A stretch of DNA of 64,000 nucleotides from a virus. Within the stretch, counting starts at the first letter, position 1. Every line of letters starts with the position of its first letter. Positions 191 through 44,730 of the stretch are shown here, one piece after another. The DNA is taken from the IMG/VR virus record IMGVR_UViG_3300042878_001826, positions 32,001 to 96,000 of that record. The stretch is one strand, 5' to 3'. A program made the position numbers and the translations under genes. The notes beneath the pieces were generated by a model. The model saw nothing but the letters and a program-made list of their open reading frames with translations. It was not told the DNA's origin and made no database searches.

Positions 191-364
191 GGCAATTGTC
201 AGTTTGCTTACAGATTGTTATATAAACAAAGGAAAAAAAGTTTAAAAAATATTCTGTCTACATGTCTTGCCATTGTTGACATGTTTTTCACAAACCCTTG
301 CCATGGTTGATAAATATCATTTTTTTTGATTTTTTTTTAATATATAATCAAAACTATTAAAAAG

Positions 365-2551
365 ATGGATAAATATAAAAACAAATCATCTATAAAAGCA
401 AAAATTGCACTTGGACTGGCAATTTTTGTCATGTCTATATTCTTCATCGTGAAGACTATGGTATTCATGGAAGAAATTCCATCAACTCCGATGACGAGAG
501 GAATAGAATATGGATGCTTTCTACTATTCATACCAATCTTTGGAGTATTCGCAAAGGAATTTCTAAAAAGAGGTAAAGAAGATGCCAAGCAAGGAATCTA
601 TCTAAAAAAACTAAACAATGTTCTTATAGAACAATCACATAATCATTTATTTTATGAAGGTGATGTAACTAATGGTGCAAAAGCTTTAGTAAAAGAAGTA
701 ACCAATTCAATCGATGCAGATAGATGTTCTATTTGGCTATACAACGAAGACAAGACTTCTATATTATGTGAACAGCTTTATGTAAAAGCAGAAGATAAGT
801 TCTACCAAAATATAGAACTTTTTGAAAAAGACTTTGGTGGATACTTTGAACATCTTACAATAGATCCTATAATAGTCGCAAATGATGCAGAGACACATCC
901 TGCAACAAAATGCTTTACAGAATCTTACTTAAAGCCACTTGGTATAAAGTCTATGCTAGACGTTCCAATCGTATATAAAGGAAAAGTTATAGGAGTTATC
1001 TGTATAGAAAACCTTATACTTAGAGAATGGCAAAAGGTAGAAGTTGACTTTGCACAAATGTTATCATCTTTATATTCGTTTGCTTATTCAGTAAGAGAAT
1101 CAAATATTGTTTCAAATGAACTTATTGAAATGGAGAGATTCATAGATGAGGCAAACATTATATCAAAGGCTGATAAAAATGGGAAGATAACATATGTGAA
1201 TAAAAAATTTACAGAAGTTTCTGGATGGACATTAGAAGAAGCTCTTGGTAAAGACCATAATAAAGTAAACTCCGATACATATACTAAAGATTCGGAAGAA
1301 GTACCATTTATCGCAATACCGCCAGAATTCTGGAATAACATGTATAATACCGTAATAAAAGATAAGAAAATCTGGAATGAAGTGGTTACCAACAAGAAAA
1401 AAGACGGAAGCCTTTACTATTTAGACACTTATATTAAGGCATCATTTGATAAGAATGATGTTCTAAAAGGGTTTACATCTATTAGACAAGATTTAACAGA
1501 ACTTAAAAATAAAGAAGTTGATATCAGCAACAGGATGAATGCGATAAACAGATCTAACGCAGTAATCGAATTTGATATGGAAGGAAACATAATATATGCA
1601 AATCATCAGTTCTTAGATACACTTGGATATTCTTTCGATGATATAAAGGGTAAAAAACATAAAATATTCTTAGAAGAAGAGTACAAAGACAGTAAAGAGT
1701 ATAAAGACTTTTGGCAAGTACTTAAAAATGGAGAATATTTTATGGGAGAAATAAGAAGAGTCAAAAAAGATGGTTCTATAGTATTTCTTCAAGCAACCTA
1801 CAATCCAATCATTGGAACGGATGGAAAGCCTTACCGAATAATGAAGATTGCAAACGATATAACACTTTCTGTAAAACAACAGATTGAGATTGAAAGAAAG
1901 AATACTTATTTAGAACACTCAGCTAAGATACTTAGACACGATATGCATAGTGGAATAAACACTTATATGCCAAGAGGTTTAAACTCATTAGAACGTAGAT
2001 TGACAGAAGACCAAATAAAAGAGTTAAAGATAGAAGCACCTATCAAAATGATTAAAGAAGGTCTTAGACATACACAAAAAGTTTATAAAGGTGTTTATGA
2101 GTTCACAAACCTTGTTAAGAAAGACGTTGTTTTAAATAAAGCAGAGTGTGATCTTAAAGCTATTTTAGAAGATTACTTATCAGCAACCGCTTATAAGAAC
2201 CAAGTAGTGATAGAGGATATTGGAACAGAGAATGTCAATGAAGCTCTTTTTTGTACGGCACTCGACAATCTTATCAGAAACGGATTGAAGTATAATGATA
2301 GTTCAAGTAAGGTTGTAAAGATATACAGAGTTGAAGATGTTCTTTTCGTAGAAGATAATGGTAGAGGAATGACTCAAGAAGATTTTAAAGCATTATCAGA
2401 ACCTTATACACGAAAAGAAGGACAGAAAGAAAGCGGGACCGGTTTAGGTTTAAATATATGTGTAGCAATTTTAGAAGAACATAAGTTCTCTATAACATGT
2501 GATAAACTACCTGAAGGTGGAACGCAACTAAAAATAAATATGAAAAAATGA
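365..2551 (+). CDS. Membrane-anchored sensor histidine kinase (2 TM, GAF, 2 PAS/PAC, HisKA, HATPase_c)
   Basis: GAF (ADRCSIWLY..LGIKSMLDVPI..VIGVICIE), two PAS/PAC domains (KKDGS), H-box ILRHDM, N-box LDNLIRNGLKY, G1 VEDNGRGM, G2 GTGLGLNIC. Confidence 0.95.
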   Translation: MDKYKNKSSIKAKIALGLAIFVMSIFFIVKTMVFMEEIPSTPMTRGIEYGCFLLFIPIFGVFAKEFLKRGKEDAKQGIYLKKLNNVLIEQSHNHLFYEGDVTNGAKALVKEVTNSIDADRCSIWLYNEDKTSILCEQLYVKAEDKFYQNIELFEKDFGGYFEHLTIDPIIVANDAETHPATKCFTESYLKPLGIKSMLDVPIVYKGKVIGVICIENLILREWQKVEVDFAQMLSSLYSFAYSVRESNIVSNELIEMERFIDEANIISKADKNGKITYVNKKFTEVSGWTLEEALGKDHNKVNSDTYTKDSEEVPFIAIPPEFWNNMYNTVIKDKKIWNEVVTNKKKDGSLYYLDTYIKASFDKNDVLKGFTSIRQDLTELKNKEVDISNRMNAINRSNAVIEFDMEGNIIYANHQFLDTLGYSFDDIKGKKHKIFLEEEYKDSKEYKDFWQVLKNGEYFMGEIRRVKKDGSIVFLQATYNPIIGTDGKPYRIMKIANDITLSVKQQIEIERKNTYLEHSAKILRHDMHSGINTYMPRGLNSLERRLTEDQIKELKIEAPIKMIKEGLRHTQKVYKGVYEFTNLVKKDVVLNKAECDLKAILEDYLSATAYKNQVVIEDIGTENVNEALFCTALDNLIRNGLKYNDSSSKVVKIYRVEDVLFVEDNGRGMTQEDFKALSEPYTRKEGQKESGTGLGLNICVAILEEHKFSITCDKLPEGGTQLKINMKK

Positions 2552-2985
2552 TAGATTCAATTTTATTAGTGGATGACGAAGATTTATTCCACTTAGTATT
2601 CGAAGACGCTTGTAGTCTTTTAGATATAACCCTTTCTTTACAAGGACTAAATAGTTCTGATGAAGCAGAAGGCCTTTTCAAAAAATGGTTTAATGAAGGA
2701 CCAATCGATGAAAAACCAGAGTGTGTATTCGTTGACTTAAACATTATTGGTTCATCTTTCGATGGGATTGAACTTATTCGTAAGATAAACTTTGAATATG
2801 GTAATCACGTAGTAATCGGAATTATATCTTCTTCTGACGAACCAACAGAACAAGCTAAAGCTATTTCAGCAGGTGCTCAATTCTGGATAATCAAATCTGA
2901 CGATATCGAACCAAGACTTGAAGAGTTCAGAAAAGACTATGATGGATATAAAAACAGAACGAACCCATTCAAGATTTATAAATAA
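2548..2985 (+). CDS. Single-domain response regulator (REC)
   Basis: ILLVDDED, phospho-Asp in FVDLN, ISSS and IIK motifs; overlaps the kinase stop (ATGA). Confidence 0.93.
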   Translation: MIDSILLVDDEDLFHLVFEDACSLLDITLSLQGLNSSDEAEGLFKKWFNEGPIDEKPECVFVDLNIIGSSFDGIELIRKINFEYGNHVVIGIISSSDEPTEQAKAISAGAQFWIIKSDDIEPRLEEFRKDYDGYKNRTNPFKIYK

Positions 2986-2988
2986 GTC

Positions 2989-3669
2989 ATGATAAAAATT
3001 GACAAAGCAACGAAAGAGGCATTATTGGATCTATATAAATCCAAAAAGATTGCATTAGAAGGAAATATCCTAAAGGTTATAGATTCTGATGGTGATTTAG
3101 AATTTGATACTTATGTAAAGGATTCGATTGAGAAAGACAAAGAGAATAGAAGAAAACGTCTTGATATAACCAAACAGATACAAAATAAAAACAAAGAGCT
3201 TTTAGAAGGTGAGGTTGAAAAAGAAAGAGTAAACTTAGAATTGGTTGCAGCTCTTGAAGAGGCGGAAGAATCTAAAAAAGAAGCAATAAGTGCTAAAGAA
3301 CAGGCAGAACTTGCCAAAGAAGAAGCTGAAACGGCTAGAGAAGAAGCTGAAGTTGCAAGAACAGAGGCAGAGAAGTCTAAGATTGAAGCAATAAACGCAA
3401 AGAATCTTGCAGAAGGTGATTTAGAACTTATGCAGAAAAGAACTCAGTTTGAGTTGATTGGAACTATTGTAAAGGTTGCACTTTGGGTTATCTTAGGAGT
3501 TGGTGTAATAACTACATTAGTTTTTATGATAGCACTCTTCGCCGGTAAGGATACCGCAGTTATTGGATCGACCTGGAGTAATATAATAGGAATACTTCTT
3601 ACGAACTCATTCAGTATTATAGGAACAATAATGGGTGTCAAATACGCATCCAGTGATAAAAAAGAATAA
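2989..3669 (+). CDS. Coiled-coil protein with two C-terminal transmembrane helices; third gene of the two-component operon
   Basis: E/A/K-rich heptads (EAEESKKEAISAKEQAELAKEEAE) followed by two hydrophobic segments; 3 nt after the regulator; followed by a terminator. Confidence 0.8.
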   Translation: MIKIDKATKEALLDLYKSKKIALEGNILKVIDSDGDLEFDTYVKDSIEKDKENRRKRLDITKQIQNKNKELLEGEVEKERVNLELVAALEEAEESKKEAISAKEQAELAKEEAETAREEAEVARTEAEKSKIEAINAKNLAEGDLELMQKRTQFELIGTIVKVALWVILGVGVITTLVFMIALFAGKDTAVIGSTWSNIIGILLTNSFSIIGTIMGVKYASSDKKE

Positions 3670-3700
3670 AAAAAAGTGTCAGATTTCTGACACTTTTTTT
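3668..3700. terminator. Bidirectional intrinsic terminator
   Basis: A-tract-GTGTCAGA-TT-TCTGACAC-T-tract between convergent genes. Confidence 0.85.
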
Positions 3701-4036: not shown

Positions 4037-4046
4037 ATACTATATA

Positions 4047-5258
4047 TTAATCTGCGTTTTCGTCTTCTGCAACATCTATGAAGAAAAGAGACGCATCTCT
4101 TTCTTTCAAGAATTCTCTGGCGACTTTTAACTTTCTTGTTTGGTCTGAAACCCAGTCTTTAGCTAAGTCATAGACATCAGCATTTCCTTTTGATAAAGAC
4201 ATAACATATCCAAAGTTTCTTTCTTTCTTATATTTCAAAGCGAAAGTCTTTCTCATTAGTTGTAATCTTAAATCTCCAGTCCAGTCTTTACCTACACCAC
4301 CTTCTAAAAACAATTCGTAAGAGTTGTTTATATCTTTAACTTTTTCAGACACAGTGTGTTTTACAACAGCTATTATCTTTTCGATTCTAGCGTGTGCTTC
4401 AACTTCTTCTTCTGGTACTTGACCAAGAACGTCGTCTATTTTTTCATCCAAGACATATCTAACCAATACGTGTTCTCTGTATAAGTCGTTAGTCAATAAA
4501 CCATGTCTTTCACAATACCAAGCAGTCTTAACTTTTATGAAAAGTCCGTTGGAGAATTCTATGATCCATCCTTCTTTGTCCTCTACTGATTGAGACAAAT
4601 CAACAAGCTCGTCTAATGAAGCAACATCAGATGGTGCCACTTTCAAAGAACCTATTTCTTTAGAGAATTTAGACAAGTCTAAGTATTCTCCAGTTTTGTT
4701 ATCTCTTAATCTCAATAATATCAATTCTTCGTCTAAGTATCTTAAAACGATTCTGTTGTTTGGTGCAACATATTCGAATACAGCCACATAGTCTTTTTCT
4801 AAAGACCAGTCTACAAATCTTTTCAAATCTGCGTTTGATTTATACAATCTGTTCATACCGGCTGCTTGGTCAGATTCAAAAGACATTTTAGATTTACCCA
4901 ACACAGATCCGTTTGGTAATCTTATAAAGGACGCAACAGAACCATCTTCTTTGTTGTAGATAGATCTTATACCTAAATCAGCAACCAAAGAGTATTGAGA
5001 CTCTGGAACTTGGTTTAAGTTAAAGAATTTGTGTAGTAATAAATATCTGTTGAACAAAGAACCATCTTCGTTGAAGACAAAAGTCAAGCCTCTCATTTCG
5101 AATGCAGAGTTGTCTATGAAGTCAGAGTACATTGCTAAACGGTAGTTGAAGATAGATACATTATATCCTTCAACCACGAATTTTGATTCGTAGAATGGAG
5201 CATCTACACCTAAAGTAAGTGCAACCGCTTCGTCGTATGATAATAAGTATCTTTTCAT
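4047..5258 (-). CDS. T4 Rnl1/RnlA-like RNA ligase
   Basis: EMRGLTF, HKFFNLNQ, adenylation motif KEDGS, FEYVAPNNRIVLRY, EGWII, IKVKTAWY. Confidence 0.9.
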   Translation of the reverse strand: MKRYLLSYDEAVALTLGVDAPFYESKFVVEGYNVSIFNYRLAMYSDFIDNSAFEMRGLTFVFNEDGSLFNRYLLLHKFFNLNQVPESQYSLVADLGIRSIYNKEDGSVASFIRLPNGSVLGKSKMSFESDQAAGMNRLYKSNADLKRFVDWSLEKDYVAVFEYVAPNNRIVLRYLDEELILLRLRDNKTGEYLDLSKFSKEIGSLKVAPSDVASLDELVDLSQSVEDKEGWIIEFSNGLFIKVKTAWYCERHGLLTNDLYREHVLVRYVLDEKIDDVLGQVPEEEVEAHARIEKIIAVVKHTVSEKVKDINNSYELFLEGGVGKDWTGDLRLQLMRKTFALKYKKERNFGYVMSLSKGNADVYDLAKDWVSDQTRKLKVAREFLKERDASLFFIDVAEDENAD

Positions 5259-6968: not shown

Positions 6969-7457
6969 ATGATAATAAAAATACATCCAGAGGATATTAT
7001 TAAAAGATGCTTATGGGACCATTATGTTTACTACATATTGGGTGGGTCTGACAAAGAAGCAGAAAAGATTCTGAAGGAAAACGTTGAAGTTGAGGTTTCT
7101 GAAAAGGACGCGTTAGTTATCGGACTTTTAAAAGTAATCGAAACAGACAACCTTATACACAAGTTCAACGGATACGTAATGGAACTACTTACTAACAAAT
7201 CTTTAAAAGAAAAGGAACTTCTATTGGTAAGAAAGAAAGCTTTAGATGCTGCATTAGACAAGTTTGTAGATAAGTTTCCAGACTATTGGGAGCCGAGCAC
7301 AGGATACAGAAATGGATTGATAGACTTAGTAGAGTATGTAGAGAAGATTAAAAAGGACGTCGAAAAGTTAGAAGTTCATAAAATCGTAGATAAAAACGTT
7401 ACTTATGAGTTTTACAACTCAAACAACGTAAGAAAATTATTAAAATTCAATTATTAA
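6969..7457 (+). CDS. Hypothetical protein
   Basis: 162 aa ORF heading the grpE-dnaJ run. Confidence 0.75.
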   Translation: MIIKIHPEDIIKRCLWDHYVYYILGGSDKEAEKILKENVEVEVSEKDALVIGLLKVIETDNLIHKFNGYVMELLTNKSLKEKELLLVRKKALDAALDKFVDKFPDYWEPSTGYRNGLIDLVEYVEKIKKDVEKLEVHKIVDKNVTYEFYNSNNVRKLLKFNY

Positions 7458-7460
7458 GAA

Positions 7461-8000
7461 ATGAAAAAGGATAAAGTACAAGAACTAAATACCAAAGAGA
7501 TGAAAATAGATAGTAATACTATTGGACTTGATTTAACTGGTGAGAATGCTGTTGAGTTTGTATTAGAAGACAATCCAAGAGCACACGTTTCTGTTTTAGA
7601 AGAACAGTTGAAAGAAGAAAAGAATAAATATCTTCTTCTTTATGCAGACTTTGAAAACTACAAAAGAAGAGTTCATAAAGAGAAAGAAGAGTTGAAAAAC
7701 AATACCAAAGTTTCTATGATTACTTCTATCTTGGATATGGACAACGATATCGAACTTGCAATCAAAAACATCAAAGATGATTCTGCGAGAGATGGTGTTA
7801 TGCTTATATCGTCAAAAGTTCAGAACTTTTTGAAGACTCATGGTATTGAACCAATACAAACTGAAACTTATGACGAAGATCTTCACGAAGTAATCTCTGT
7901 TTTAGAGATTGGTGAGAATAAGATTGTCGATGTTGTTAGTAAAGGTTATACTTTAAACGAAAAACCTTTCAGATTCCCTAAAATCGTATTAGGAAAGTAA
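7461..8000 (+). CDS. grpE: Nucleotide exchange factor GrpE
   Basis: YLLLYADFENYKRR, YDEDLHEVIS, KGYTLNEKPFRFPKIVL. Confidence 0.92.
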   Translation: MKKDKVQELNTKEMKIDSNTIGLDLTGENAVEFVLEDNPRAHVSVLEEQLKEEKNKYLLLYADFENYKRRVHKEKEELKNNTKVSMITSILDMDNDIELAIKNIKDDSARDGVMLISSKVQNFLKTHGIEPIQTETYDEDLHEVISVLEIGENKIVDVVSKGYTLNEKPFRFPKIVLGK

Positions 8001-9389: not shown

Positions 9390-10460
9390 ATGAGCAAAGA
9401 CTACTACAGCGTTTTAGGAGTAGATAGAAACGCAACAGAAGAACAGATCAAAAAAGCTTATCGAAAGAAAGCGATGGAGTTCCATCCTGATAAAAATCCA
9501 GGAAACCCAGCGGCTGAAACAAAATTCAAAGAAGCTGCAGAAGCTTATGATGTACTTTCAGATGCTGGTAAAAAGTCTAACTACGACAACTTTGGTTCTG
9601 CAACAGGAAATCCTTTTGGTGGAGGTGGTGGAAACCCATTCGGTGGTGGAGGTCATGGATTCAATATGGATGACATCTTTTCACAATTTGGTGACATATT
9701 TGGAAACAGAGGTGGTGGAAAACAACAAAGAAGAAAAGCAAGAGGTTCTGATTTAAGAATCAAAGTTGTTTTGAATATTGATGAGATATTGAAAGGATGT
9801 ACTAAGAAACTTAGGTATAAAAGACATACTAAATGTGATCCTTGTGCTGGAAAAGGTGGTACTGACGTAAGAGAATGTTTGGCTTGTAAAGGAAGTGGAC
9901 ATAGAACGGTTGTTCAGAATACACCATTTGGACAAATGAGAACAGAAACAACTTGTCCTGATTGTAGAGGTACAGGAAGTATAATAAGAAATCAATGTAA
10001 TCATTGTCATGGAGAAGGAACTCAACTTAAAGAACAGGTTATTGATGTTGAAGTACCTGTAGGAGTATCAAACGGAATGCAACTTAATATGCAAGGGTAT
10101 GGTAATGATGTAAGAGATGGTGTTGCTGGCGACCTACATATATTAGTGGAAGAAGCACAAGACTTTTCATATAAGAGAGAAGGAAACAATTTGATAGTAG
10201 AAAAGACTATATCTGTTATAGATGCAATCTGTGGTGCACACGTCAAAGTATCTACTCCGCACGGAGAGCAATCTCTGTATATCGAACCAGGAACTGAACA
10301 TGGTAGAACTGCTAGAATAGGTGGTAAAGGTATTCCAGATATACATTATGGATTGGGAGATTTGTTTATAAAAATATCAATAAAGATTCCTAGAAACATA
10401 GATATGGACGAGCAACACATACTCGAAAAACTAAAAGATTCCAAAAACTTTCAAGTATAA
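9390..10460 (+). CDS. dnaJ: Class A J-domain chaperone DnaJ
   Basis: J domain with HPD, G/F-rich linker, four CxxCxGxG repeats, C-terminal domain. Confidence 0.97.
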
Positions 10461-10745: not shown

Positions 10746-13700
10746 CTATTCATACAAGCTACTTGTACGATAAATATTTCGATGAAAGACAAGACATCCT
10801 GTTGGATACGTCGCATATGTTGTCGGGCTCGTCGAGTATGTAGTTCCTACAGTTAGTAGAGTTGTACTATAGAGAGTATTATTAAAACCGTTGATGAAAT
10901 TTGAACAACGAATAGCACCACTATTTGAGCTGTAGTATGTTCCGGTTGCTGTAGTCAAGAATGCCCTTAGATAAACAAAGTGAATTGGGTATGGTGCACC
11001 GACAACACCATCCCAAGGAGTTCCTGGTAAAATACCCATAATATTTGGCGTTGTCGTCTTACCTGAGATGGCATATGCAACCGAATCGGATAAGGTAGGT
11101 GTAGTCGATGTAGTCGACCAACAAACTCCAGAGCTCAATACGGTTTCTCCACCATATATCGAATTAGAAAACGTCATAGAAACATATCCCTGTGGTGCAA
11201 CATAAGCAGAATTTACTGCCTGTTCTGCCATTTGATATACCAACGGTAAAGCGTCAATAGATATCGAAGTACGTCTCCAGTCTCTATTATAATCGAAGTC
11301 CCACGGACTATATGTTGCCGGCTCCCATTCTCGTTCCCACCAACCACGTCTCCACCAAGGAGTATATTCTTCATCCCATGTCGTATCCCAGACCCCTACA
11401 TCTACTGCGTTAGTTGCCAACCTGAAGGCCCTTACTTTTTTGATGCCTGACTTACCATCCGACTTTTGATATCCTACAGATGGAACTGATGCCTCTGAGC
11501 ACGAGTAATAGTATGCAGTGGCTGCGTTTATTTCTGTTGATGTCCAATATGAACCTGCCAATGAATCAGATCCGAGTACAGTATTTACTATACTCCCAGC
11601 GTTGAATGCTTGATTCATTTCAAATACAGATGGTAAATACCAATCTGTGAATCCACCACCAGTATAGTTGTCACATAACTTAGCTGCAGAAGTTGTGTGT
11701 CCACTTTGTCCGATTATACTTGTCTGATTATTTTCTCCTTTGAAGTCCGAAGTTGCATTAGAAACCACTGACGTTATGTTTGACCATTGAGAATTTGCAC
11801 TTACATCTTCTAAAGACATTATAAGATAGTTGAATATAGTTTTAGGATAATACCACATTGCGACTATTATTCCACCACCATATAGCTCCCCGATATATCT
11901 ATAGTTGTTAGGTCTTGAAAAAATTGAGTTTTTGTCTACCCATTTTGAATATCCAACGGAGTTTAGTTTTAATATCTTTTCGTTACTAATCTCACCTATT
12001 TCAAGTGATAAGTTTTGTGATATTGAGAATGTGGGATTTCCATTTATCTCATGAGAGAAGAATTTGTTTGCATCATTAAAGTTGTCAAATCTGAATTTAT
12101 CAGTATCGTAATTATTTCTTACTTCACCATAACTAATAGATTTGTTATATATCTGAATACTTGCCAATGATCCTTTTAGAGGATTTACTGCAGTTGAATA
12201 TCTACCGACAATAACATCACCGGCAATACCTGTTGCCATTGTGAATGTGGATGGAGCAGAAGAGTTTATATCAAGTACGGAATCTATATATGTCTTTAGA
12301 TTTTTAGTTGTATTGTCAAAAGTAGCACAGACATGAGTCCATTTGTTCAAATCTATACCTTTTGTACCAACCTTATCAACAATAACAGTTAAGTTTTTTA
12401 GTCTTACTCCTATTGTACTCAAAGTAGTTCCTAAAACTTGATAAACTTCCCATGGACCACTGGTTGCACCGGTTGTATTCCATCTTACTATTATCGTGGA
12501 ATTTCTTCTTTCTGTTAATTTTACCCAAAAAGAAACCGAAAGGTTCTGAATAGCTTGAAAGTCGACAGAGTTTGCCCATGCTAAATATGGATTTGTAGCA
12601 ATAGTTCCTGGAAAGATTAGTTCTTTTCCATTGTATAAAGTGTTTGTTCTTTGAACTGCAGGTATTGTTGTAGTACCTGAGATAGTAAGAGTTGCGCTTC
12701 TCACATTACCACTTAGGTCGGTAACCGTTCCACTTATTGTTCCATCACCAGAATAAGAGTTCGTATTGTCGAAGTCTATACTTGTAAAGATATTGTTGTC
12801 TAATAACTTAGGTAGAATCTCATATCTTTTCTTCTCTACGCTGTAGTTCTTCATTATTTCGTCTTTTGTAAGTGCTCTATTATAAATTCTAAACACAGAC
12901 ATATCCATTGGCATTATATAATTAAGGGCTGCTCTGAAACCACCAATTCTTCCTTGACCAGAATTGAAGTTTGCAGTGGTGGCACTTGGTGTTGATGTAG
13001 GAAACTGTTGAGAAAGTATCTGCTCGTTTCCATTTATATAAATCTTATTGTTTGATAAAATATTTGGAGCAGTTCCAAGGGCTGCCCCTGTCTTCATCTC
13101 AAAAACATAATGATTCCAGTTATCAACCAGATTAAGTTTAGCTACTTGAGTAGTCGATATTCCATATAAATCTGAACTATTTGTATTGAATCCTAAATGT
13201 CCGCTCGCGCAATATACATCATATTGATCCCAACCAAATATCATTTTTCCACTATATGCAGGTTTTAGTCTTACCCAAGCTTCTACAGTTACGGTAGTCG
13301 TGTTTCCAACGGTTGTCTGAAAATCTACATAGGAATTCCCATTAAATCTAATGAATCCGCTCTCACTTGGTAAGTATACCGGCCCTGTAGGTGGAGTTCC
13401 ACCAACATTTGTTCTTACATAGATGTTATCTACGCTAGGTCCGGATTTGGTTACCGAATCGACATAACTTGCATTTGGTGCTGTTATCTTTATGGATATG
13501 TTCTTTCCACTGAATTGACTCAATTGTATGTGCACTGATGCACCAGTACCACTATTGTTGTTTCCAACGGTATTTGTTATTTGGGTTAGTAGAAAGTATG
13601 CTCCAGGTGTTCCTCCCGAATTGATAGAGACATATACGTTTACAGTAGCACTTACAGTGCTTTTGACGGTACTTTGGTCGAGAGTATCGAATTGTAGGTA

Positions 13701-15824
13701 AGCATATGATGACCCTACTGCGAAATAGTTTGAAACCAAAGATGATTCTCCGGTATTGTTGTATAAAGTTGGAGTAGTCGTTCCGGTTATTTTTGTAAAA
13801 CCCCAAGCACCGACTAACCTATAAGCCAAGCTATCTAAGTTACCTCCAGTGTTTAGATCTGCAAGTATATTTGTAATAGTTCCTCCTGATACCGAATTAG
13901 GGAAAGCGGATAGATTGAACAAATATGATGAATTCAATCCACCATTAACCAAATCTTTCCATTTGGTATATACTCCTAGGTTTAGATAGTCTACATCAGA
14001 GAAAGACTTTTTGATTGTAGAATCTAGATTCATTATCAATCCGTCACCTGTATAGACAGACTCTTTTCTTACTGCTCTTACTCTTCCAAAGCTTGATTTG
14101 TTTTTAAAATAGTAATCAGCACCATTAGGAGTACCGGCAAAAGAATTAAAAGACATTGCAGCATTTGTGGAATTTGCTCCTCCAGATCCTGGTGGTCGAA
14201 AATATTCCGTTGATGTCCAATAATCTTTGATTAGGAAATTAAGACTATCATCCTTTAAAACTTTATTTATTATAGCTGCATTATTGAAGACTTGGTTTAG
14301 TTCGTAGTATGATGGTAGATACCAGTCATCATAACCAGAACCTCTATAATCAGCACAAACTTTTGCAGCACTATAGATTGTATTTAACGAGTTAGATTGT
14401 GCGATTATCACATCACTATTCAAATCTCCGTTATAAAGACTTTGTGCCAAAGCACCTACGGTTGTACCCTGTGCTGCACCTGCAGCCCATCTGATATCTT
14501 GTATATAGGTCAGAGGTTCATAGTTCAATCCTGTTCCTGTAGAGTCGAACGAAATATTTACCACCTCTTGTGCAGCAGGTACGTTCTGACCAACACCTGA
14601 TGTTATTGGAGTCGTTTCAGAACCGACATAGTCTACATATATTCTGAATACACCCATCGTTCCTTGTCCCTGATTGTATAGTATTCGGTAGTTTGCTGCA
14701 AGGTATTGAGCATTGGAAGACATCGCAGGATAATAAAAATCTACAGCAACCACACGAAAGACATTGACGACAGAAGTCGTAGTAGACTTTATTCTAAGCA
14801 ATCCTTTTTGTACAACATTTGAATAGGTATACCCACCAGGAATGGTAGTAAATGAACCAGCACCTGCCGCTTCATTTGGAACTAATCCAGATCCACCACC
14901 AGTTCCGTTTAAAGATAGGAAAAAGCCAGCCTGATCTACCAGATTTATATCTAAGTTGTGTATACATATAATAGCAACATTTTGAAGATTTCCACCACCA
15001 TATGGACCAGATCCATTTAAATCGTGATAGGTTAAGAATTTATTCGTTGAGGTGGATGTTCCAGGATTATCTAAAGTAGCATTAGTACCCATTTTGTATG
15101 GAATGGTTGTGATAGTTCCAATCGAGCCCGCACCATCTTCTGTAGTGATGTCCTCGTTCGATACGATAAGAACTTTTTCATCTTCTGCTTCTTTCCAAAC
15201 TGCCGCGACTATTCCTCCTCCATATTTCTCTCCTATGTAGTGACCAAATGAGAAAAGAGACTTTACTGGTTTCCAAGTAGCCAACCCTGAAGAATCGGAT
15301 GTCAATACTCTTTCAACACCCTCACTTGCATCTCTTATTTGTAAAGGATCGTAGAATCCTACCGTAGTATCTGATATATAGTATCCATGTGCATCGGATG
15401 CACCGTATGTAGATATAGAAAATTGTGCACCATACTTATTTACATTAGCGGCAAATATGTCGTAGTATCCAGAACAATATGCCCTAACATAGTAAGTAGT
15501 GTTTGGTAACAGAGTATCTATCTTCACACTATAGTCCCAATTTATTGAAGAAGCAGCGGCGCTATAAATTTCGGGTTTCATCAAAGAATCAATAACCTGT
15601 CCGGATATTGGTACTAAAGTATCAGTAGTGGTTGTATTTGAAATGGATTGTGCAGTTGTTATTGATATTGGTTGTGTACTATAAATAAAACCTAATCTTA
15701 TATTAGTAATTCCTGGTCCAAAAGAACTCGGAATAAAAAATCCTGTTCCTTTTGCGATTATCGAGCTATCTAATCTATTGGTTAATTCTATAGTTACTGA
15801 ACCTAATTGTGCTGATGTTGCCAT
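10746..15824 (-). CDS. Large adhesin/tail-fibre-like protein with two DUF1566 (Lcl/CLec-like) and two LamG-like domains
   Basis: Repeated YIGE(K/L)YGGGI, DWYLPS..E(L/M)NQ, YWTSTE, VRA(V/F)R; LamG-like W(N/T)H(Y/V) and (R/Q)IYN(R/K) motifs; S/T/G/N-rich. Confidence 0.8.
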   Translation of the reverse strand: MATSAQLGSVTIELTNRLDSSIIAKGTGFFIPSSFGPGITNIRLGFIYSTQPISITTAQSISNTTTTDTLVPISGQVIDSLMKPEIYSAAASSINWDYSVKIDTLLPNTTYYVRAYCSGYYDIFAANVNKYGAQFSISTYGASDAHGYYISDTTVGFYDPLQIRDASEGVERVLTSDSSGLATWKPVKSLFSFGHYIGEKYGGGIVAAVWKEAEDEKVLIVSNEDITTEDGAGSIGTITTIPYKMGTNATLDNPGTSTSTNKFLTYHDLNGSGPYGGGNLQNVAIICIHNLDINLVDQAGFFLSLNGTGGGSGLVPNEAAGAGSFTTIPGGYTYSNVVQKGLLRIKSTTTSVVNVFRVVAVDFYYPAMSSNAQYLAANYRILYNQGQGTMGVFRIYVDYVGSETTPITSGVGQNVPAAQEVVNISFDSTGTGLNYEPLTYIQDIRWAAGAAQGTTVGALAQSLYNGDLNSDVIIAQSNSLNTIYSAAKVCADYRGSGYDDWYLPSYYELNQVFNNAAIINKVLKDDSLNFLIKDYWTSTEYFRPPGSGGANSTNAAMSFNSFAGTPNGADYYFKNKSSFGRVRAVRKESVYTGDGLIMNLDSTIKKSFSDVDYLNLGVYTKWKDLVNGGLNSSYLFNLSAFPNSVSGGTITNILADLNTGGNLDSLAYRLVGAWGFTKITGTTTPTLYNNTGESSLVSNYFAVGSSYAYLQFDTLDQSTVKSTVSATVNVYVSINSGGTPGAYFLLTQITNTVGNNNSGTGASVHIQLSQFSGKNISIKITAPNASYVDSVTKSGPSVDNIYVRTNVGGTPPTGPVYLPSESGFIRFNGNSYVDFQTTVGNTTTVTVEAWVRLKPAYSGKMIFGWDQYDVYCASGHLGFNTNSSDLYGISTTQVAKLNLVDNWNHYVFEMKTGAALGTAPNILSNNKIYINGNEQILSQQFPTSTPSATTANFNSGQGRIGGFRAALNYIMPMDMSVFRIYNRALTKDEIMKNYSVEKKRYEILPKLLDNNIFTSIDFDNTNSYSGDGTISGTVTDLSGNVRSATLTISGTTTIPAVQRTNTLYNGKELIFPGTIATNPYLAWANSVDFQAIQNLSVSFWVKLTERRNSTIIVRWNTTGATSGPWEVYQVLGTTLSTIGVRLKNLTVIVDKVGTKGIDLNKWTHVCATFDNTTKNLKTYIDSVLDINSSAPSTFTMATGIAGDVIVGRYSTAVNPLKGSLASIQIYNKSISYGEVRNNYDTDKFRFDNFNDANKFFSHEINGNPTFSISQNLSLEIGEISNEKILKLNSVGYSKWVDKNSIFSRPNNYRYIGELYGGGIIVAMWYYPKTIFNYLIMSLEDVSANSQWSNITSVVSNATSDFKGENNQTSIIGQSGHTTSAAKLCDNYTGGGFTDWYLPSVFEMNQAFNAGSIVNTVLGSDSLAGSYWTSTEINAATAYYYSCSEASVPSVGYQKSDGKSGIKKVRAFRLATNAVDVGVWDTTWDEEYTPWWRRGWWEREWEPATYSPWDFDYNRDWRRTSISIDALPLVYQMAEQAVNSAYVAPQGYVSMTFSNSIYGGETVLSSGVCWSTTSTTPTLSDSVAYAISGKTTTPNIMGILPGTPWDGVVGAPYPIHFVYLRAFLTTATGTYYSSNSGAIRCSNFINGFNNTLYSTTLLTVGTTYSTSPTTYATYPTGCLVFHRNIYRTSSLYE

Positions 15825-26171: not shown

Positions 26172-26702
26172 ATGAAAATAAAGAAATATACACAGTTTTT
26201 AAACGAATCAAGTGGGTTTAGTCTTGGTTGTGTTATGATAGAAGTTCCGGTATCAAACTGGGAAGAAATAACATCATCTATTACAGAAGAAGATCTTTAT
26301 ACAGATGAAGGAAAGCCAGGTATTCAAGATAATCCTCATGTTACTATTCTTTATGGATTACACGAAGAAGTTTCTTTGAATCAAATAAAATCTGTATTTG
26401 AAGGACTAAATGAGCGTATAGATATAAAGATAGAAGGAATAGGAGTATTTGAAAATGAAAACTTTGATGTAGTAAAATTCAATGTTGTTCCAATCGGTAC
26501 TTTACAAAGTCTACACGACAAACTTTCCGAATTTCCAAACTCTAATGAGTATCCAGAATACGAACCACATATAACTATAGCTTATGTTAAAAAAGGAAGT
26601 GGTAAGAAATACGAAGACTTAGAATACAGACATAGTGTTGATAATGTTAATGAAGTATGTTATTCAATACCAGGTGGTTCCAAAGAATATTTCAAAATCT
26701 AA
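26172..26702 (+). CDS. 2H phosphoesterase, T4 gp57B/Acb1 (anti-CBASS nuclease)-like
   Basis: Two HxT motifs, PHVTILYG and YEPHITIAY; N-terminal MKIKKYTQFLNES. Confidence 0.8.
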   Translation: MKIKKYTQFLNESSGFSLGCVMIEVPVSNWEEITSSITEEDLYTDEGKPGIQDNPHVTILYGLHEEVSLNQIKSVFEGLNERIDIKIEGIGVFENENFDVVKFNVVPIGTLQSLHDKLSEFPNSNEYPEYEPHITIAYVKKGSGKKYEDLEYRHSVDNVNEVCYSIPGGSKEYFKI

Positions 26703-31426: not shown

Positions 31427-32026
31427 ATGAGATTAAGTAGTCAGAATAGTCAGTTCATATTCAACCTTCCTGGTGATTTTATAAAACCAGAAACGATAAA
31501 CACGTATCAACCAATTTTGGAGAAGAACTGGGTTCAGTACGAAAATGTCATCGATTATCTAAATTCGACAATCAAATCTGTTAACTTTCCAGGTATGTCA
31601 TTTGAGATGCCGAAGCAGATTTTGATGAGAGGTAAGGAACGTCAGTTTAAGCCAGCAAAGAATGTTCAAGATATTACGACAACACACGATTTAACGATTA
31701 CTTTTAGATCTGTGGATTCCGATTTGAACTATTGGCTTATGTTTGATTTACTTTCTAAGCATTATATGGACGTAGAAAACTCGTTCTTGAACCCATTCAC
31801 AATAACGTGTGTGGATATACACAGAGATGCTTTGTATGTGATAAGATTCTATGAGATAATATTGAAGTCTTTGTCAGAAAACACATTTAACTATTCTTCA
31901 CAAAAAGTAACAAGTAAAGACTTCACTCTTGCCTTCCATTTTAACTTCTATGATATAGAGTTTATGTTAGACAAAAGTAAAGTTCTGGAACTTGGTGCGT
32001 TGCCACAGATTATTCAACGTCTTTAA
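31427..32026 (+). CDS. T4 gp3-like tail tube terminator / tube-fold protein
   Basis: IKSVNFPGMSF..DLTITFRSVDSDLNYWLMF resembles the gp3/gp19 tube family. Confidence 0.62.
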   Translation: MRLSSQNSQFIFNLPGDFIKPETINTYQPILEKNWVQYENVIDYLNSTIKSVNFPGMSFEMPKQILMRGKERQFKPAKNVQDITTTHDLTITFRSVDSDLNYWLMFDLLSKHYMDVENSFLNPFTITCVDIHRDALYVIRFYEIILKSLSENTFNYSSQKVTSKDFTLAFHFNFYDIEFMLDKSKVLELGALPQIIQRL

Positions 32027-39688: not shown

Positions 39689-40386
39689 ACTATTATTCTT
39701 TCTTCTATTGACATAGACTGTCTTTTTTTCCATGTCAAATCATCTTCTGCCCATTTTGCATTATAAGCCTGATCCGCTTGATCTACTTCTCTTTTACCAG
39801 CAGCGTAGTGTAGATGTTCAAACATTGTCTCATCGTTCAACCTATCGTCGTAAAGAAGGTTTAAATCTTTTAGATTGTTGTATAACTCACAATCCGAAAA
39901 CATATGATTATATGCTGGGTGGTATATAACTCCATTCATTTTTCTTAAACAACCATAAGTCATTATAGGAATAGTGATTGCGGCATGAAGCATATTTGAA
40001 GAGTCTGGTAGTTGATAACCATCTCTAACCATCAAACCTACATCTCCTTTCCCTTCTAACTTATTCTTCAAATAAGTGTCCCATCCTTGTGGTGCCATAA
40101 AGTCGTCGCTCGCAAATACGACTATATCACCATCTTCACATTTACCCATCTTAATTCCTAAGTTGGAAGAAAGTTGATATGAAGGATAACAAACACCAAT
40201 CTTATTAGTGTTCAATGTTATCAAAAAGTTTTTACTTAGATATTCTCTAAGTTCGTCTGCTTGTTCTTTCCAGTTGACAGCGACGTATGTCTGTATGTTT
40301 TCTGGATTGTCAGCTCTCTTAATCCATTCAGAATGTGCTGACTGAAATTGTGCAGGTCTAAGCGTGCACCATAGTATGTGTATCAT
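39685..40386 (-). CDS. GT2-like glycosyltransferase
   Basis: VFASDDF, IYHPAYNHMFSDCEL, FEHLH. Confidence 0.72.
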   Translation of the reverse strand: MIHILWCTLRPAQFQSAHSEWIKRADNPENIQTYVAVNWKEQADELREYLSKNFLITLNTNKIGVCYPSYQLSSNLGIKMGKCEDGDIVVFASDDFMAPQGWDTYLKNKLEGKGDVGLMVRDGYQLPDSSNMLHAAITIPIMTYGCLRKMNGVIYHPAYNHMFSDCELYNNLKDLNLLYDDRLNDETMFEHLHYAAGKREVDQADQAYNAKWAEDDLTWKKRQSMSIEERIIV

Positions 40387-41422
40387 CTTTTAATATATTT
40401 TTATTGTCATGCCAAATCATCAGCTTGACTAAAGATTCGAATTTTACCTGTGGTTCCCAACCCAAAACTTCTTTGGCTTTAGAGTAGTCACCTAATAAAG
40501 TATCGACTTCTGCAGGTCTATAATACTTACTATCTATCTCAACGATTACTTTTCTACCAGATTTAGTTACTAGTTTTTCATCAATACCTTCACCAACCCA
40601 TTCTACATCTACACCACATTGTTCTATAGCCAAATCAACAAATTCTTTAATACTATGTGTTTCATTTGTTGCAAGAACATAATCATCTGGTGTATCATGT
40701 TGTAACATTCTCCACATTCCCTCTACATAATCTTTAGCATAACCCCAATCTCTTTTAGAATAAAGATTACCTAATTTTAAAGGTTCAAATTCTGTTTTAT
40801 CGAGTAATGATTTCTTTATCTTAGAAAGGCCGATTGTTATCTTTCTAGTTACAAAAGTCTCACCTCTGCGTTCTCCTTCGTGGTTGAAAAGTATTCCGTT
40901 ACATATAAACATTCCGTAAGACTCTCTGTAGTTCTTTGTTATCCAAAGACCATACATCTTTGCACAGCCATAAGGAGATCTTGGATGCATAACAGATGTT
41001 TCTGTATATCCAGTTTCGGGCATATTGTAACTCATCCCACCATAAAGTTCTGATGTAGATGCTTGATATACTCTTGCCTTAGGACAATGATTTTTAACCG
41101 CCTCTAATATCACAAGAGTTCCCATCGCGTCTACCTGTCCTGTGTAATAAGGTTCTTCAAAAGAAACCTTCACATGTGATTGTGCTGCAAGGTTATATAC
41201 CTCGTCTGGTTGTATTTTTGATATTAAGTTTGAAATCACCAACGGATCGGTAACGTCTCCATGATGTAGATTTAGTCTATCAAATATGTGGTCAATTCTT
41301 CCAGTATTGAAGGAAGATGATCTTCTGATAACTCCGTGTACTTCATATCCTTTTTCTAAAAGTAGTTCTGCTAAATGTGAACCATCTTGTCCCGTTATTC
41401 CTGTTATTAAAGCCTTTTTCAT
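40358..41422 (-). CDS. gmd: GDP-mannose 4,6-dehydratase
   Basis: LITGITGQDGS, NLAAQSHV, QASTSELYG, SPYGCAK, ETFVTRKIT, RDWG, RPAEVD. Confidence 0.97.
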   Translation of the reverse strand: MKKALITGITGQDGSHLAELLLEKGYEVHGVIRRSSSFNTGRIDHIFDRLNLHHGDVTDPLVISNLISKIQPDEVYNLAAQSHVKVSFEEPYYTGQVDAMGTLVILEAVKNHCPKARVYQASTSELYGGMSYNMPETGYTETSVMHPRSPYGCAKMYGLWITKNYRESYGMFICNGILFNHEGERRGETFVTRKITIGLSKIKKSLLDKTEFEPLKLGNLYSKRDWGYAKDYVEGMWRMLQHDTPDDYVLATNETHSIKEFVDLAIEQCGVDVEWVGEGIDEKLVTKSGRKVIVEIDSKYYRPAEVDTLLGDYSKAKEVLGWEPQVKFESLVKLMIWHDNKNILKDDTHTMVHA

Positions 41423-42603: not shown

Positions 42604-44730
42604 TTATTCGTCTTTTTTCTTTCTTACCTTTTTGACTGGCTTTTCAAGAATAACAAATGACTTATCGTCTTCTTTGTTGTAGTCCATTAAGAAACTTGTT
42701 CCTTCTTTAGGATTGTTCTCAATGATATAGTCAGTGATGATATCATCAACCCATCTTTGAATGGCTCTCTTTAAAGGTCGAGCACCATACTTAGGATCAT
42801 ATCCTACTTCTACCAAATGCTCTTTTAAAGCTTCTGTGATTTGTGTAGGGTATCCAATGTCTGAAGCTCTTTTGATAGTCTTAACAAGCTCAAGATCTAC
42901 GATTTTAAGAATCTCTTCTTTACCTAAATCTTTGAAGTAGATAATCTCGTCAAGTCTGTTAATGAACTCAGGAGCAAACTTGTTTTTAAGTTCTTTCTCT
43001 AAAATTCCTTTAATCTCTTCTTCTCTTACGTTTTCTTTGTTCTTCGTAGAGAATCCAACACCAGTTCCAAAGTCTTTTATCAATTTAGTTCCTACGTTAG
43101 AAGTCATCAAAATGATACAGTTTTTAAAACTTACCTTTCTTCCGTGTGAATCTGTTACGTGGCCGTCATCTAACATTTGAAGAAAGATGTTGAATACTTC
43201 AGGATGTGCTTTCTCAATCTCATCAAAAAGAACTACTGAATAAGGTTTTCTTCTGATTCTATCAAGAACATTTGCGTCATCGTATCCAACGTATCCAGGT
43301 GCAGAACCTTGTATTTTAGAGATAGATATTTTATCCATATACTCAGACATATCTAATCTAATCAAAGAATCTTCTGAATCGAATAAGTATTTAGCAATCT
43401 GTTTAGCTAACTCAGTCTTACCAACACCAGAGTTTCCAATAAGCATTCCACTAAAAACTGGTTTGTTTTCGTCTTTCATACCAACACGACCTCTTTGAAT
43501 AGCTCTAACGACTTTCTTAACAGCTTCGTCTTGACCAACAACTTTACCAGAGATTTCAGTTCCCATCTTAGCAAGTCTTGTGTTTTCTTTCTCACCAACT
43601 TTCTGTAATGGAATACCAGTCATCATAGAAACAACTTCAGCAACATTGTCTTCAGTAACAGTTTGTCTGTTTCTAGAAGATTCGTCTTCCCAATCTTTTC
43701 TAGCTTTCTCTAAACTCTCATTAAGTTGACGTTCAACGTCTCTTAATTTAGCAGCTTCTTCATACTTTTGAGAACGGATAACTTCGTTCTTTTTATCTTT
43801 GATGTCAGAAATCTTTTTCTCGATATCTGTAATCTCTTTAGGAACTACAATGTTAGAGATATGAACTCTTGATCCAGCTTCATCTAAAGCATCAATCGCT
43901 TTGTCTGGTAAGAATCTGTCGGTCATATATCTACTTGTTAAATCAACACAAGCTTTGATTGCTTCTGGTGTGTATTCAACATTGTGGTGTGATTCGTATT
44001 TGTCTTTGATGTTATTCAAAATTTCCATACTTTCTTCCGGAGAAGCAGCTTCGATGATTACTTTTTGAAATCTTCTTTCTAAAGCACCATCTTTCTCAAT
44101 GTGTTTTCTGTACTCATCAAGAGTAGTAGCACCAATGATTTGTATCTCACCTCTAGCCAATGCTGGCTTGAACATATTACTAGCATCCATAGAACCTGAA
44201 GCACCACCTGCACCAATCATAGTGTGAATCTCATCGATGAAAAGAATCACATCAGGATTTTTCTCCATCTCTCCCATAAGAGCTTTGATTCTTTCTTCAA
44301 ACTGACCTCTGTATTTAGTACCGGCAACCATAGAAGCTAAGTCTAACATAACAACTCTTTTGTTAAAAAGAATTCTACTAACTTTTCTTTGTATAATTCT
44401 AAGTGCCAATCCTTCTGCTACAGAAGATTTACCAACACCTGGCTCTCCTATTAAGATAGGGTTGTTCTTTTTTCTTCTCGCCAAGATTTGAGAAACTCTT
44501 TCGATTTCTTTCTCACGTCCTACGATAGGATCAAGTTTTCCTTCTTCTGCCATCTTCGTAAGATCACGGCTATAAGTATCCAATACTGGAGTCTTTGTCT
44601 TAGCATCGGTCTTTTTGTTTCCTGAACTGTAAGAAGATTTTTCATCGTCGTCGTCGTCATCTATCGCAGACTTGATGTTAGGCAGCCTTTTAAGGTATTC
44701 GCTGTCTTCTGATTTTTTATTTTTTCCCAT
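42604..44730 (-). CDS. clpC: ClpC-type AAA+ unfoldase lacking the Clp-N domain
   Basis: [24 protein letters not shown] middle domain [25 protein letters not shown], ClpP-docking VGF loop, GARPLKR. Confidence 0.93.

Follow-up and report, generated by a model that had tools for sequence, protein, structure and literature searches.

Organization of the cassette

The 64,000-nucleotide stretch analyzed here (the window) covers positions 32,001 to 96,000 of the IMG/VR virus record IMGVR_UViG_3300042878_001826, which is 150,251 base pairs (bp) long. Near its start the window carries three genes on the plus strand, encoding a sensor histidine kinase (positions 365–2551, 728 amino acids), a stand-alone receiver (2548–2985, 145 amino acids) and a membrane protein that we call T3 (2989–3669, 226 amino acids). 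As we describe below, we conclude with high confidence that this trio is a phage-specific relay from kinase to receiver to T3 that ends in a membrane hairpin. An ATGA overlap joins the stop codon of the kinase gene to the start codon of the receiver gene, and 3 nucleotides separate the receiver and T3 genes. An earlier reading of the sequence (the initial annotation) had described three coupled genes between a TAATATATA element and a terminator, and we found the open reading frames (ORFs), the overlaps, the motif and the terminator hairpin as described.

The cassette is preceded by a promoter-like motif on the plus strand, a run of T residues followed by TAATATATA (positions 327–346, with TAATATATA itself at 338–346), which lies 18 nucleotides upstream of the kinase ATG. 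TAATATATA occurs 16 times in the window versus 2.4 times expected, a count reached in none of 100 shuffles, and 32 times in the entire 150-kb contig, with nearly all copies positioned either 5 or 19–30 nucleotides upstream of an ORF start. Because of this non-random copy number and fixed spacing, the T-run followed by TAATATATA looks like the phage's own promoter, used partly for leaderless messages. The 5-nucleotide class implies messenger RNAs that are leaderless or nearly so, and the two spacing classes may represent two modes of expression. Further sites in the window at which a T-run precedes TAATATATA include those at 4041–4049, 17389, 20345, 23627, 25598, 26159, 46728, 48870, 51634, 55208, 59379, 60966 and 62469, among others.

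The initial annotation had placed the action of the cassette late in infection, a claim that did not hold up. The genes behind TAATATATA are of mixed kinds, encoding a ribonucleotide reductase small subunit, a 2′-5′ RNA ligase/Acb1-like protein, an FMN reductase, a GATase, and lectin-like and adaptor-like proteins, and we therefore rejected a late-promoter reading of the motif as unsupported. Within the window we recognized no head or tail genes that might anchor a late class. At the downstream end of the cassette, a hairpin terminator with a 14-bp stem (3669–3700) is common to T3 and the convergent downstream gene; because an A-run flanks one side of the stem and a T-run the other, it could act in both directions.

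The kinase and receiver retain their catalytic residues

The kinase begins with two transmembrane (TM) helices separated by a loop of ~15 amino acids (404–562), followed by a GAF domain (680–1084, residues 106–238), a first PAS domain (PAS1, about 1148–1504, around residues 262–380), a second PAS domain (PAS2, 1559–1864, residues 399–500), a DHp region whose His525 motif lies at 1934–1948, and a CA domain (2249–2539, residues 629–725), with Pfam matches to GAF, PAS_3 and HATPase_c, the last at 54.5 bits versus a cut-off of 26.4. Among 70 homologous kinases, the H-box RHDMH (His525) and the N, G1 and G2 boxes (DNLIRNG at 634, DNGRG at 664 and GTGLGL at 691) were each at least 95% conserved, as was the longer putative phospho-acceptor motif RHDMHSGINTY, which lies in a DHp region with no Pfam HisKA match. 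Mean pairwise identity was highest in the DHp (0.83), followed by the CA (0.71), GAF (0.69) and PAS (0.61–0.66) domains, and lowest in the TM helices (0.37).

When compared with domains of solved structure, PAS1 matched the flavin-binding PAS domains of MmoS (PAS-A, 3EWK, E = 9e-12), Aer (8DIK, E = 2.7e-9) and NifL (2GJ3, E = 3e-5). Its similarity to the Aer/NifL type, which the initial annotation had pointed out, was thus borne out, yet PAS1 carries an insertion of 12–14 amino acids exactly at the Aer RHPDMP segment, and the residues aligned to Aer R57 and H58, which we take to be flavin-contact residues, are N and S, as in MmoS (VNS). The proposed assignment of PAS2 to the BdlA/chemoreceptor type found no confirmation, in that PAS2 matched the same solved set as PAS1, plus LOV domains. 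Judged from these alignments, flavin binding by the PAS domains is plausible.

The receiver scored 29.8 bits against the Pfam Response_reg profile, just below the cut-off of 30.2, and a six-frame search of the genome with that profile returned no match above cut-off. The AlphaFold2 (AF2) model of the protein is a (beta-alpha)5 fold (pLDDT 89, pTM 0.84) that matched 479 chains in the PDB at E ≤ 0.001, and every match listed was a response-regulator receiver domain. D9, D10, E11, D63, S94 and K116 were 100% conserved among 62 unique homologs, with the putative phospho-acceptor Asp63 encoded at 2734–2736. Together with the kinase boxes, these residues uphold the description of a self-contained phage-borne module with intact catalytic residues. 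In keeping with another of the early claims, neither Pfam nor the AF2 model revealed an output domain, DNA-binding or otherwise, and because the protein consists of a receiver only, its output must be protein–protein. Among the best fold matches (TM-scores 0.68–0.79) were the phytochrome-type single-domain regulators Rcp1, RcpA/B, RPA3017 and the DrBphP regulator, as well as 3ILH from Cytophaga hutchinsonii. These proteins resemble the window receiver in being stand-alone, in having a C-terminal extension and in being encoded beside GAF/PAS kinases, but they share only 17–24% sequence identity with it and have no dedicated partner gene for a coiled-coil/TM protein. Judged by mean identity, no parts of the cassette evolve more slowly than the receiver (mean column identity 82% in 49 phages) and the kinase DHp (83%).

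T3 is a membrane hairpin on an in-register coiled coil

Combining the AF2 model of T3 (pLDDT 87.8) with alignments of its homologs, we divided the protein into a small N-terminal domain (N-domain; residues 1–36, positions 2989–3096), a coiled-coil stalk (3097–3468) and a hairpin of two TM helices, TM1 (3469–3543) and TM2 (3553–3654), joined by a short loop. In the model the stalk continues directly into TM1 as one unbroken helix (residues 37–185), and a second helix spans residues 189–222. T3 homologs share a mean identity of 59%, and the hairpin is the best-conserved part, being nearly invariant, with a stripe of invariant polar or small residues along TM2 (T205, N206, S209, G212, T213 and G216). 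We found no family for T3 in Pfam, NCBIfam or PADLOC, and no specific family for the receiver in NCBIfam or PADLOC.

The stalk varies in length among homologs in a highly constrained manner. Measured from the RL.ITK motif at its top to the QKKTQ motif at the membrane, the stalk spanned 49, 56, 63, 77, 84, 91 or 98 residues, a multiple of seven in all 195 unique T3 sequences; if the six other length classes were independent and random, the chance of finding only heptad lengths would be ~(1/7)^6. A corresponding rule held in proteins in which a PAS domain is fused to the T3 stalk, where the D(I/L/V)T connector lay 40, 47 or 82 residues from the juxtamembrane motif, all equal to 5 modulo 7, with the exception of one locus (L092), at which the value was 34 and the DLT match apparently falls inside the stalk and not at the end of the PAS domain. 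Because its length changes by whole heptads only, the stalk looks like an in-register signaling helix and not a spacer.

The cassette is restricted to viruses

A scan of IMG/VR with the T3 alignment identified at least 569 viral contigs encoding T3, whereas a pattern scan with the kinase as a single protein had returned no match. Among 185,579 species genomes we found only eight T3 matches, all in contigs of metagenome-assembled genomes (MAGs) from eight unrelated phyla or classes, and among 1.84 billion representative proteins T3 matched 216 clusters at E ≤ 0.001, with its atlas clusters 94–100% viral. A common captured host operon, the outcome that the initial annotation had named beforehand as speaking against its reading, is excluded by this comparison of phages with bacteria (at least 569 viral contigs versus 8 MAG contigs). 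The receiver gave a similar picture: its profile yielded four weak matches (27–33 bits) in 401 Bacteroidota genomes, and in each of the two MAGs with a contig that carried the trio, the receiver on that contig (183–225 bits) was the genome's sole match at E ≤ 0.001.

The GC content of the contigs that carry T3 ranges from 0.28 to 0.66, from which we conclude that the module has an old and wide distribution among large phages; T3 identity falls to ~40%, and metagenomic homologs number in the thousands. The assertion that complete two-component systems are unusual in phages is correct for cultured phages only. Searching the GenBank phages with the DNA of the locus yielded nothing beyond a chance 77-bp match, and tblastn with the kinase yielded only PAS or HATPase fragments, with none in LR756502, LR745206 or LR756504. 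Our literature searches found no publication describing a kinase–receiver–T3 module and no relevant paper on a phage two-component system tied to lysis.

Inputs vary while the receiver and T3 stay together

We extracted the neighborhoods of T3 in 92 loci (designated by the prefix L), of which 60 remained after dereplication at 90% T3 identity. Across the 60 dereplicated loci, the receiver adjoined T3 in 51, and an adjacent kinase was likewise present in 51. The kinases had inputs of several types: a TM segment followed by GAF, PAS and PAS (~710 amino acids), a TM segment followed by PAS and PAS (~540), a TM segment only (294–369), or an unannotated N-terminal part. Thus, the receiver–T3 pair is constant, and the kinase sensors are variable. 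Seven of the 60 loci contained two kinases, with a secreted protein of ~200 amino acids encoded between them. Arrangements with two kinases and one receiver were present at L031, L033, L037, L042, L045, L050, L082 and L086; in these variants the intervening protein contains a coiled coil and belongs to no known family, and the N-terminal sensor of the second kinase, ~300 amino acids long, is unannotated.

Several contigs lacked a nearby kinase or receiver and instead encoded the stalk and hairpin of T3 joined directly to a PAS or PAS-PAS module, or to a GAF module resembling that of the kinase. Because these fusions bypass the kinase and receiver and yet keep the stalk and hairpin, they mark the hairpin as the endpoint of the relay, and because they lack the T3 N-domain, they mark this domain as the signal-receiving part. 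The idea that the third gene is the likely endpoint, put forward in the initial annotation on the basis of the window alone, is thus strengthened by the pairing of receiver and T3, by the fusions and by the heptad register that the stalk keeps.

Some loci departed from the standard arrangement. T3 stood alone, without receiver or kinase, at L016 (3150–3806) and L040 (5001–5657), and the receiver–T3 pair had no detectable adjacent kinase at L043, L047 and L009; at L043 and L047 a divergent GH19 endolysin gene lies right upstream. A gene for a patatin-like phospholipase (E = 4e-21) lies between kinase and receiver at L062 (3003–3990), as it does at L067 and L078, an arrangement in keeping with a theme of envelope disruption. 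Genes for YceI-like proteins (E = 1e-44), a family that binds polyisoprenoids or quinones, lie beside kinase genes at L053 (3159–3680), L085 (3166–3702) and L062 (617–1147) and between kinase and receiver at L006. They are conspicuous at minimal kinases that have a TM segment only, and their products may help the kinases to sense the quinone or lipid pool of the membrane.

Lysis genes lie near the cassette in most clades other than the window's

The recurrent neighbors of the cassette included three unrelated types of peptidoglycan hydrolase: GH19 with PG_binding_1 (phrog_181 endolysin, E = 2.5e-61), GH24 lysozyme and peptidase M15. A lysin gene was directly adjacent to the cassette in 25 of the 60 dereplicated loci, within two genes in 33 and anywhere in the locus in 39, with gene order and orientation varying from locus to locus. 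We estimate that, in a phage with one to three lysins among several hundred genes, adjacency would arise by chance in ~1–2% of cases. Holins of the Pam3-gp28 type and small proteins with two TM helices were encoded between or beside the lysins and the cassette, and an Amidase_2 gene lay near one of the fusion loci. In a 291-kb genome that is 97% complete (L031), a holin gene follows the only strong GH19 endolysin gene, which itself directly adjoins the 3′ end of T3. In a tree of T3 sequences, lysin adjacency was found in all deep branches outside the clade that contains the window.

The initial annotation had offered lysis timing, superinfection exclusion and host motility as possible outputs. 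The endolysins and holins beside the cassette in relatives favor lysis timing among these; within the window's own clade no lysis gene is adjacent. We put at about even odds the proposition that the relay tunes the timing of lysis with the T3 hairpin as its endpoint.

The window probably belongs to a megaphage genome

The nearest kin of the RNA ligase encoded by the window phage are those of uncultured megaphages of 634–642 kb, and the phages nearest Mar_Mega_1 (PMC9723777) are the window's closest phage records by this protein. A metagenomic contig of 616,881 bp (L002) carries the same trio, with a kinase 85% identical to that of the window, and is syntenic with the window in having HSP70, RNA ligase, GrpE, DnaJ and a cytidylyltransferase-like gene around it. 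Based on the RNA ligase kin and this synteny, the window phage probably belongs to the Mar_Mega_1-like megaphages. A second contig, of 591,103 bp (L003), also carries the trio with neighbors that differ from those in the window. CheckV placed the completeness of the 150,251-bp record at 61%, which may underestimate the size of the genome; because the nearest syntenic relatives are 591–617 kb long, the true genome may be several times larger.

In the supplementary annotation of Mar_Mega_1 (PMC9723777), four consecutive genes are listed as hypothetical (SLAVMIC_00238), CheY-like (00239), sensor kinase (00240) and GAF/PAS-like (00241). Their order matches that of the cassette, a likeness seen at the level of annotation, with the kinase apparently split over two ORFs, unlike the single kinase ORF of the window. 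The main text of that paper is silent on the cassette, the terms being confined to the supplementary files.

Between its HSP70 and kinase genes, L002 contains a GIY-YIG/HTH gene (7192–7965, LEM-3-like) that is absent from the window and is probably a homing-endonuclease insertion polymorphism. The window itself encodes a set of chaperones: DnaK/HSP70 on the minus strand (1–117), which by eye starts at ~117 and runs off the window, and GrpE and DnaJ-like proteins on the plus strand (7461–8000 and 9390–10460), assigned by synteny with L002. A minus-strand ORF at 42604–44730 encodes a 708-amino-acid ATP-dependent protease/ATPase (phrog_4871, E = 4e-231). On the plus strand, 26172–26702 encodes a 2′-5′ RNA ligase/LigT-like protein that also matched the anti-CBASS Acb1 family (29.1 bits versus a Pfam cut-off of 27), a similarity that makes it a possible counter-defense protein degrading cyclic nucleotides. 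Also on the minus strand are an ORF of 1692 amino acids (10746–15824), with one weak PHROG match of unknown function, and, at ~32–41 kb, a run of sugar-nucleotide or glycan genes, such as that for a nucleotide-sugar epimerase (40358–41422).

Discussion

We propose a mechanism in which the kinase, anchored in the membrane, would read a cytoplasmic signal, probably redox, energy or a small metabolite, through its GAF domain and two PAS domains that resemble the flavin type. It would then autophosphorylate at His525 and pass the phosphate to Asp63 of the receiver, which would act on T3, most likely at the N-domain and the adjacent basic stretch. T3 would be a coiled-coil dimer whose stalk, held in a fixed heptad register, transmits the change to the highly conserved two-helix hairpin, and the hairpin would most likely set or gate when the host lyses, whether by being a regulated holin itself or by partnering the holin of the phage in the manner of an antiholin. 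We infer the phosphotransfer, the receiver–T3 contact, the signal and the role in lysis, the last especially so in the window's clade. In its full form, this reading makes T3 part of a phosphorylation-gated lysis clock, a holin or antiholin whose hairpin a viral kinase–receiver pair switches by way of an in-register coiled coil. With it, huge phages would time their burst by direct post-translational reading of the host's redox, energy or metabolite state. We assign this reading a probability of roughly 0.4.

Several observations weigh against a role in lysis. The 11 loci of the well-supported T3 clade in which the window falls all lack a lysin within two genes of the cassette, and searches of the 150-kb fragment for PG_binding_1, GH108, Phage_lysozyme and the GH108 protein of L003 found none. 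Because its own clade has no lysin close by, the role in lysis rests on homology as far as the window is concerned. Two members of the clade (L003 and L006) have a GH108 gene 3–4 kb from the cassette; lysin adjacency is probably ancestral, the cassette having moved in the window's clade. T3 itself matched no holin family in Pfam or PHROG. Phage_holin_9 matches in 5 of 28 T3 members were faint and not significant (best E = 0.028), hhalign found no homology between the T3 hairpin and the neighboring small TM proteins tm98 and tm88, and a Foldseek search of the PDB with the T3 model returned only generic helical hairpins, with no match at E ≤ 0.001. A cytoplasmic stalk of 160 amino acids is, moreover, atypical for holins. 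At some loci the lysins have no membrane protein beside them other than T3, but others carry a separate canonical holin, and because they do, T3 need not be the hole-former.

Some of these points would be equally at home in a scheme in which the relay drives a membrane event other than lysis, with the T3 hairpin acting as a gated ion leak or as a blocker of a host membrane machine. Such an activity might exclude superinfecting phages, shut down the energy metabolism of the host or form part of a decision for abortive infection or dormancy, with a logic resembling that of Rex or Imm. The absence of lysis genes beside the cassette in the window's clade and of a holin-family match for T3 would then need no special explanation, the position of the window cassette next to dnaK (HSP70 being a recurrent neighbor, in 20 loci) would be accommodated, and the invariant polar stripe of TM2 would be as much in place in a channel as in a holin. 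This scheme has difficulty explaining why, in most other clades, holins and endolysins of three non-orthologous types are linked to the cassette, and PADLOC returned no match to an exclusion or defense family; we regard it as unlikely, at about half the weight that we give to the lysis clock. We see a still smaller chance that the receiver really acts on the host, for instance on its kinases or regulators, on its gliding or flagellar machinery or on a protease adaptor, and that T3 serves it only as a membrane anchor, scaffold or phosphate sink. It is common for a single-domain receiver to have several targets, the nearest folds of this receiver are regulators of the phytochrome type, and its conservation (82%, versus 59% for T3) is as expected if several partners must be fitted. 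However, it is the receiver, along with the kinase, that the PAS–T3 and GAF–T3 fusions drop while retaining the stalk and hairpin, and T3 occurs alone at L016 and L040; the hairpin is too well conserved relative to the rest of T3 for a mere anchor, and the heptad-exact stalks argue for transmission of a signal.

Least probable by far is a host two-component operon captured recently, or a bacterial contig binned in error, with no role in infection. Although GAF, PAS and HATPase are domains typical of bacteria, this explanation is already contradicted by the age and virus restriction of the family, with its range of GC content, divergent T3 sequences and many metagenomic homologs, by the failure of searches of the species genomes, the 401 Bacteroidota genomes and the two MAGs to turn up a close cellular receiver or T3, and by the position of the cassette behind the phage's own recurrent promoter motif.

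The closest analogies to the proposed lysis clock are found in two systems, neither of which appears to be a relative. In staphylococci, LytSR with LrgAB/CidAB (PMC2996381) similarly ties a membrane-anchored kinase and a regulator to murein-hydrolase activity and cell death by way of membrane proteins of the holin/antiholin type. There, LytR is a DNA-binding (LytTR) protein that acts on transcription, unlike the 145-amino-acid, receiver-only regulator of the window; LrgA and CidA have no sequence relation to T3, and LytSR is cellular, whereas the window system is viral. In T4 lysis inhibition, with holin T and antiholins RI and RIII (PMC8385771, PMC11413866), a phage-encoded sensory input delays or sets the triggering of the holin, and a regulator contacts the holin directly, from the cytoplasmic side in the case of RIII. 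T4 does this with no kinase or receiver, and RI senses superinfection in the periplasm, in contrast to the cytoplasmic GAF and PAS input of the window system; T3, for its part, was assigned to no PHROG, Pfam or NCBIfam family, a result of family searches and not of a direct comparison with T, RI or RIII.

If our proposal is correct, the input to the lysis clock is modular: the sensor may be a PAS, GAF, intramembrane or periplasmic one, a pair of kinases may feed a single receiver, or sensor and effector may form one fused protein. The TM hairpin would be a new kind of two-component output, and the compactness of the three genes, with their modular inputs, would make the cassette attractive for synthetic biology as a switch from sensor to membrane. 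Lysis timing is the main life-history trait of a lytic phage, and it is known to be controlled by holin clocks and by a small number of antiholins. A viral two-component relay wired by protein contact to a membrane effector would add a new route by which sensing of the host informs the choice of when to lyse, and given how widely uncultured large phages carry the module, it may influence when cells burst in microbial communities, aquatic ones among them.

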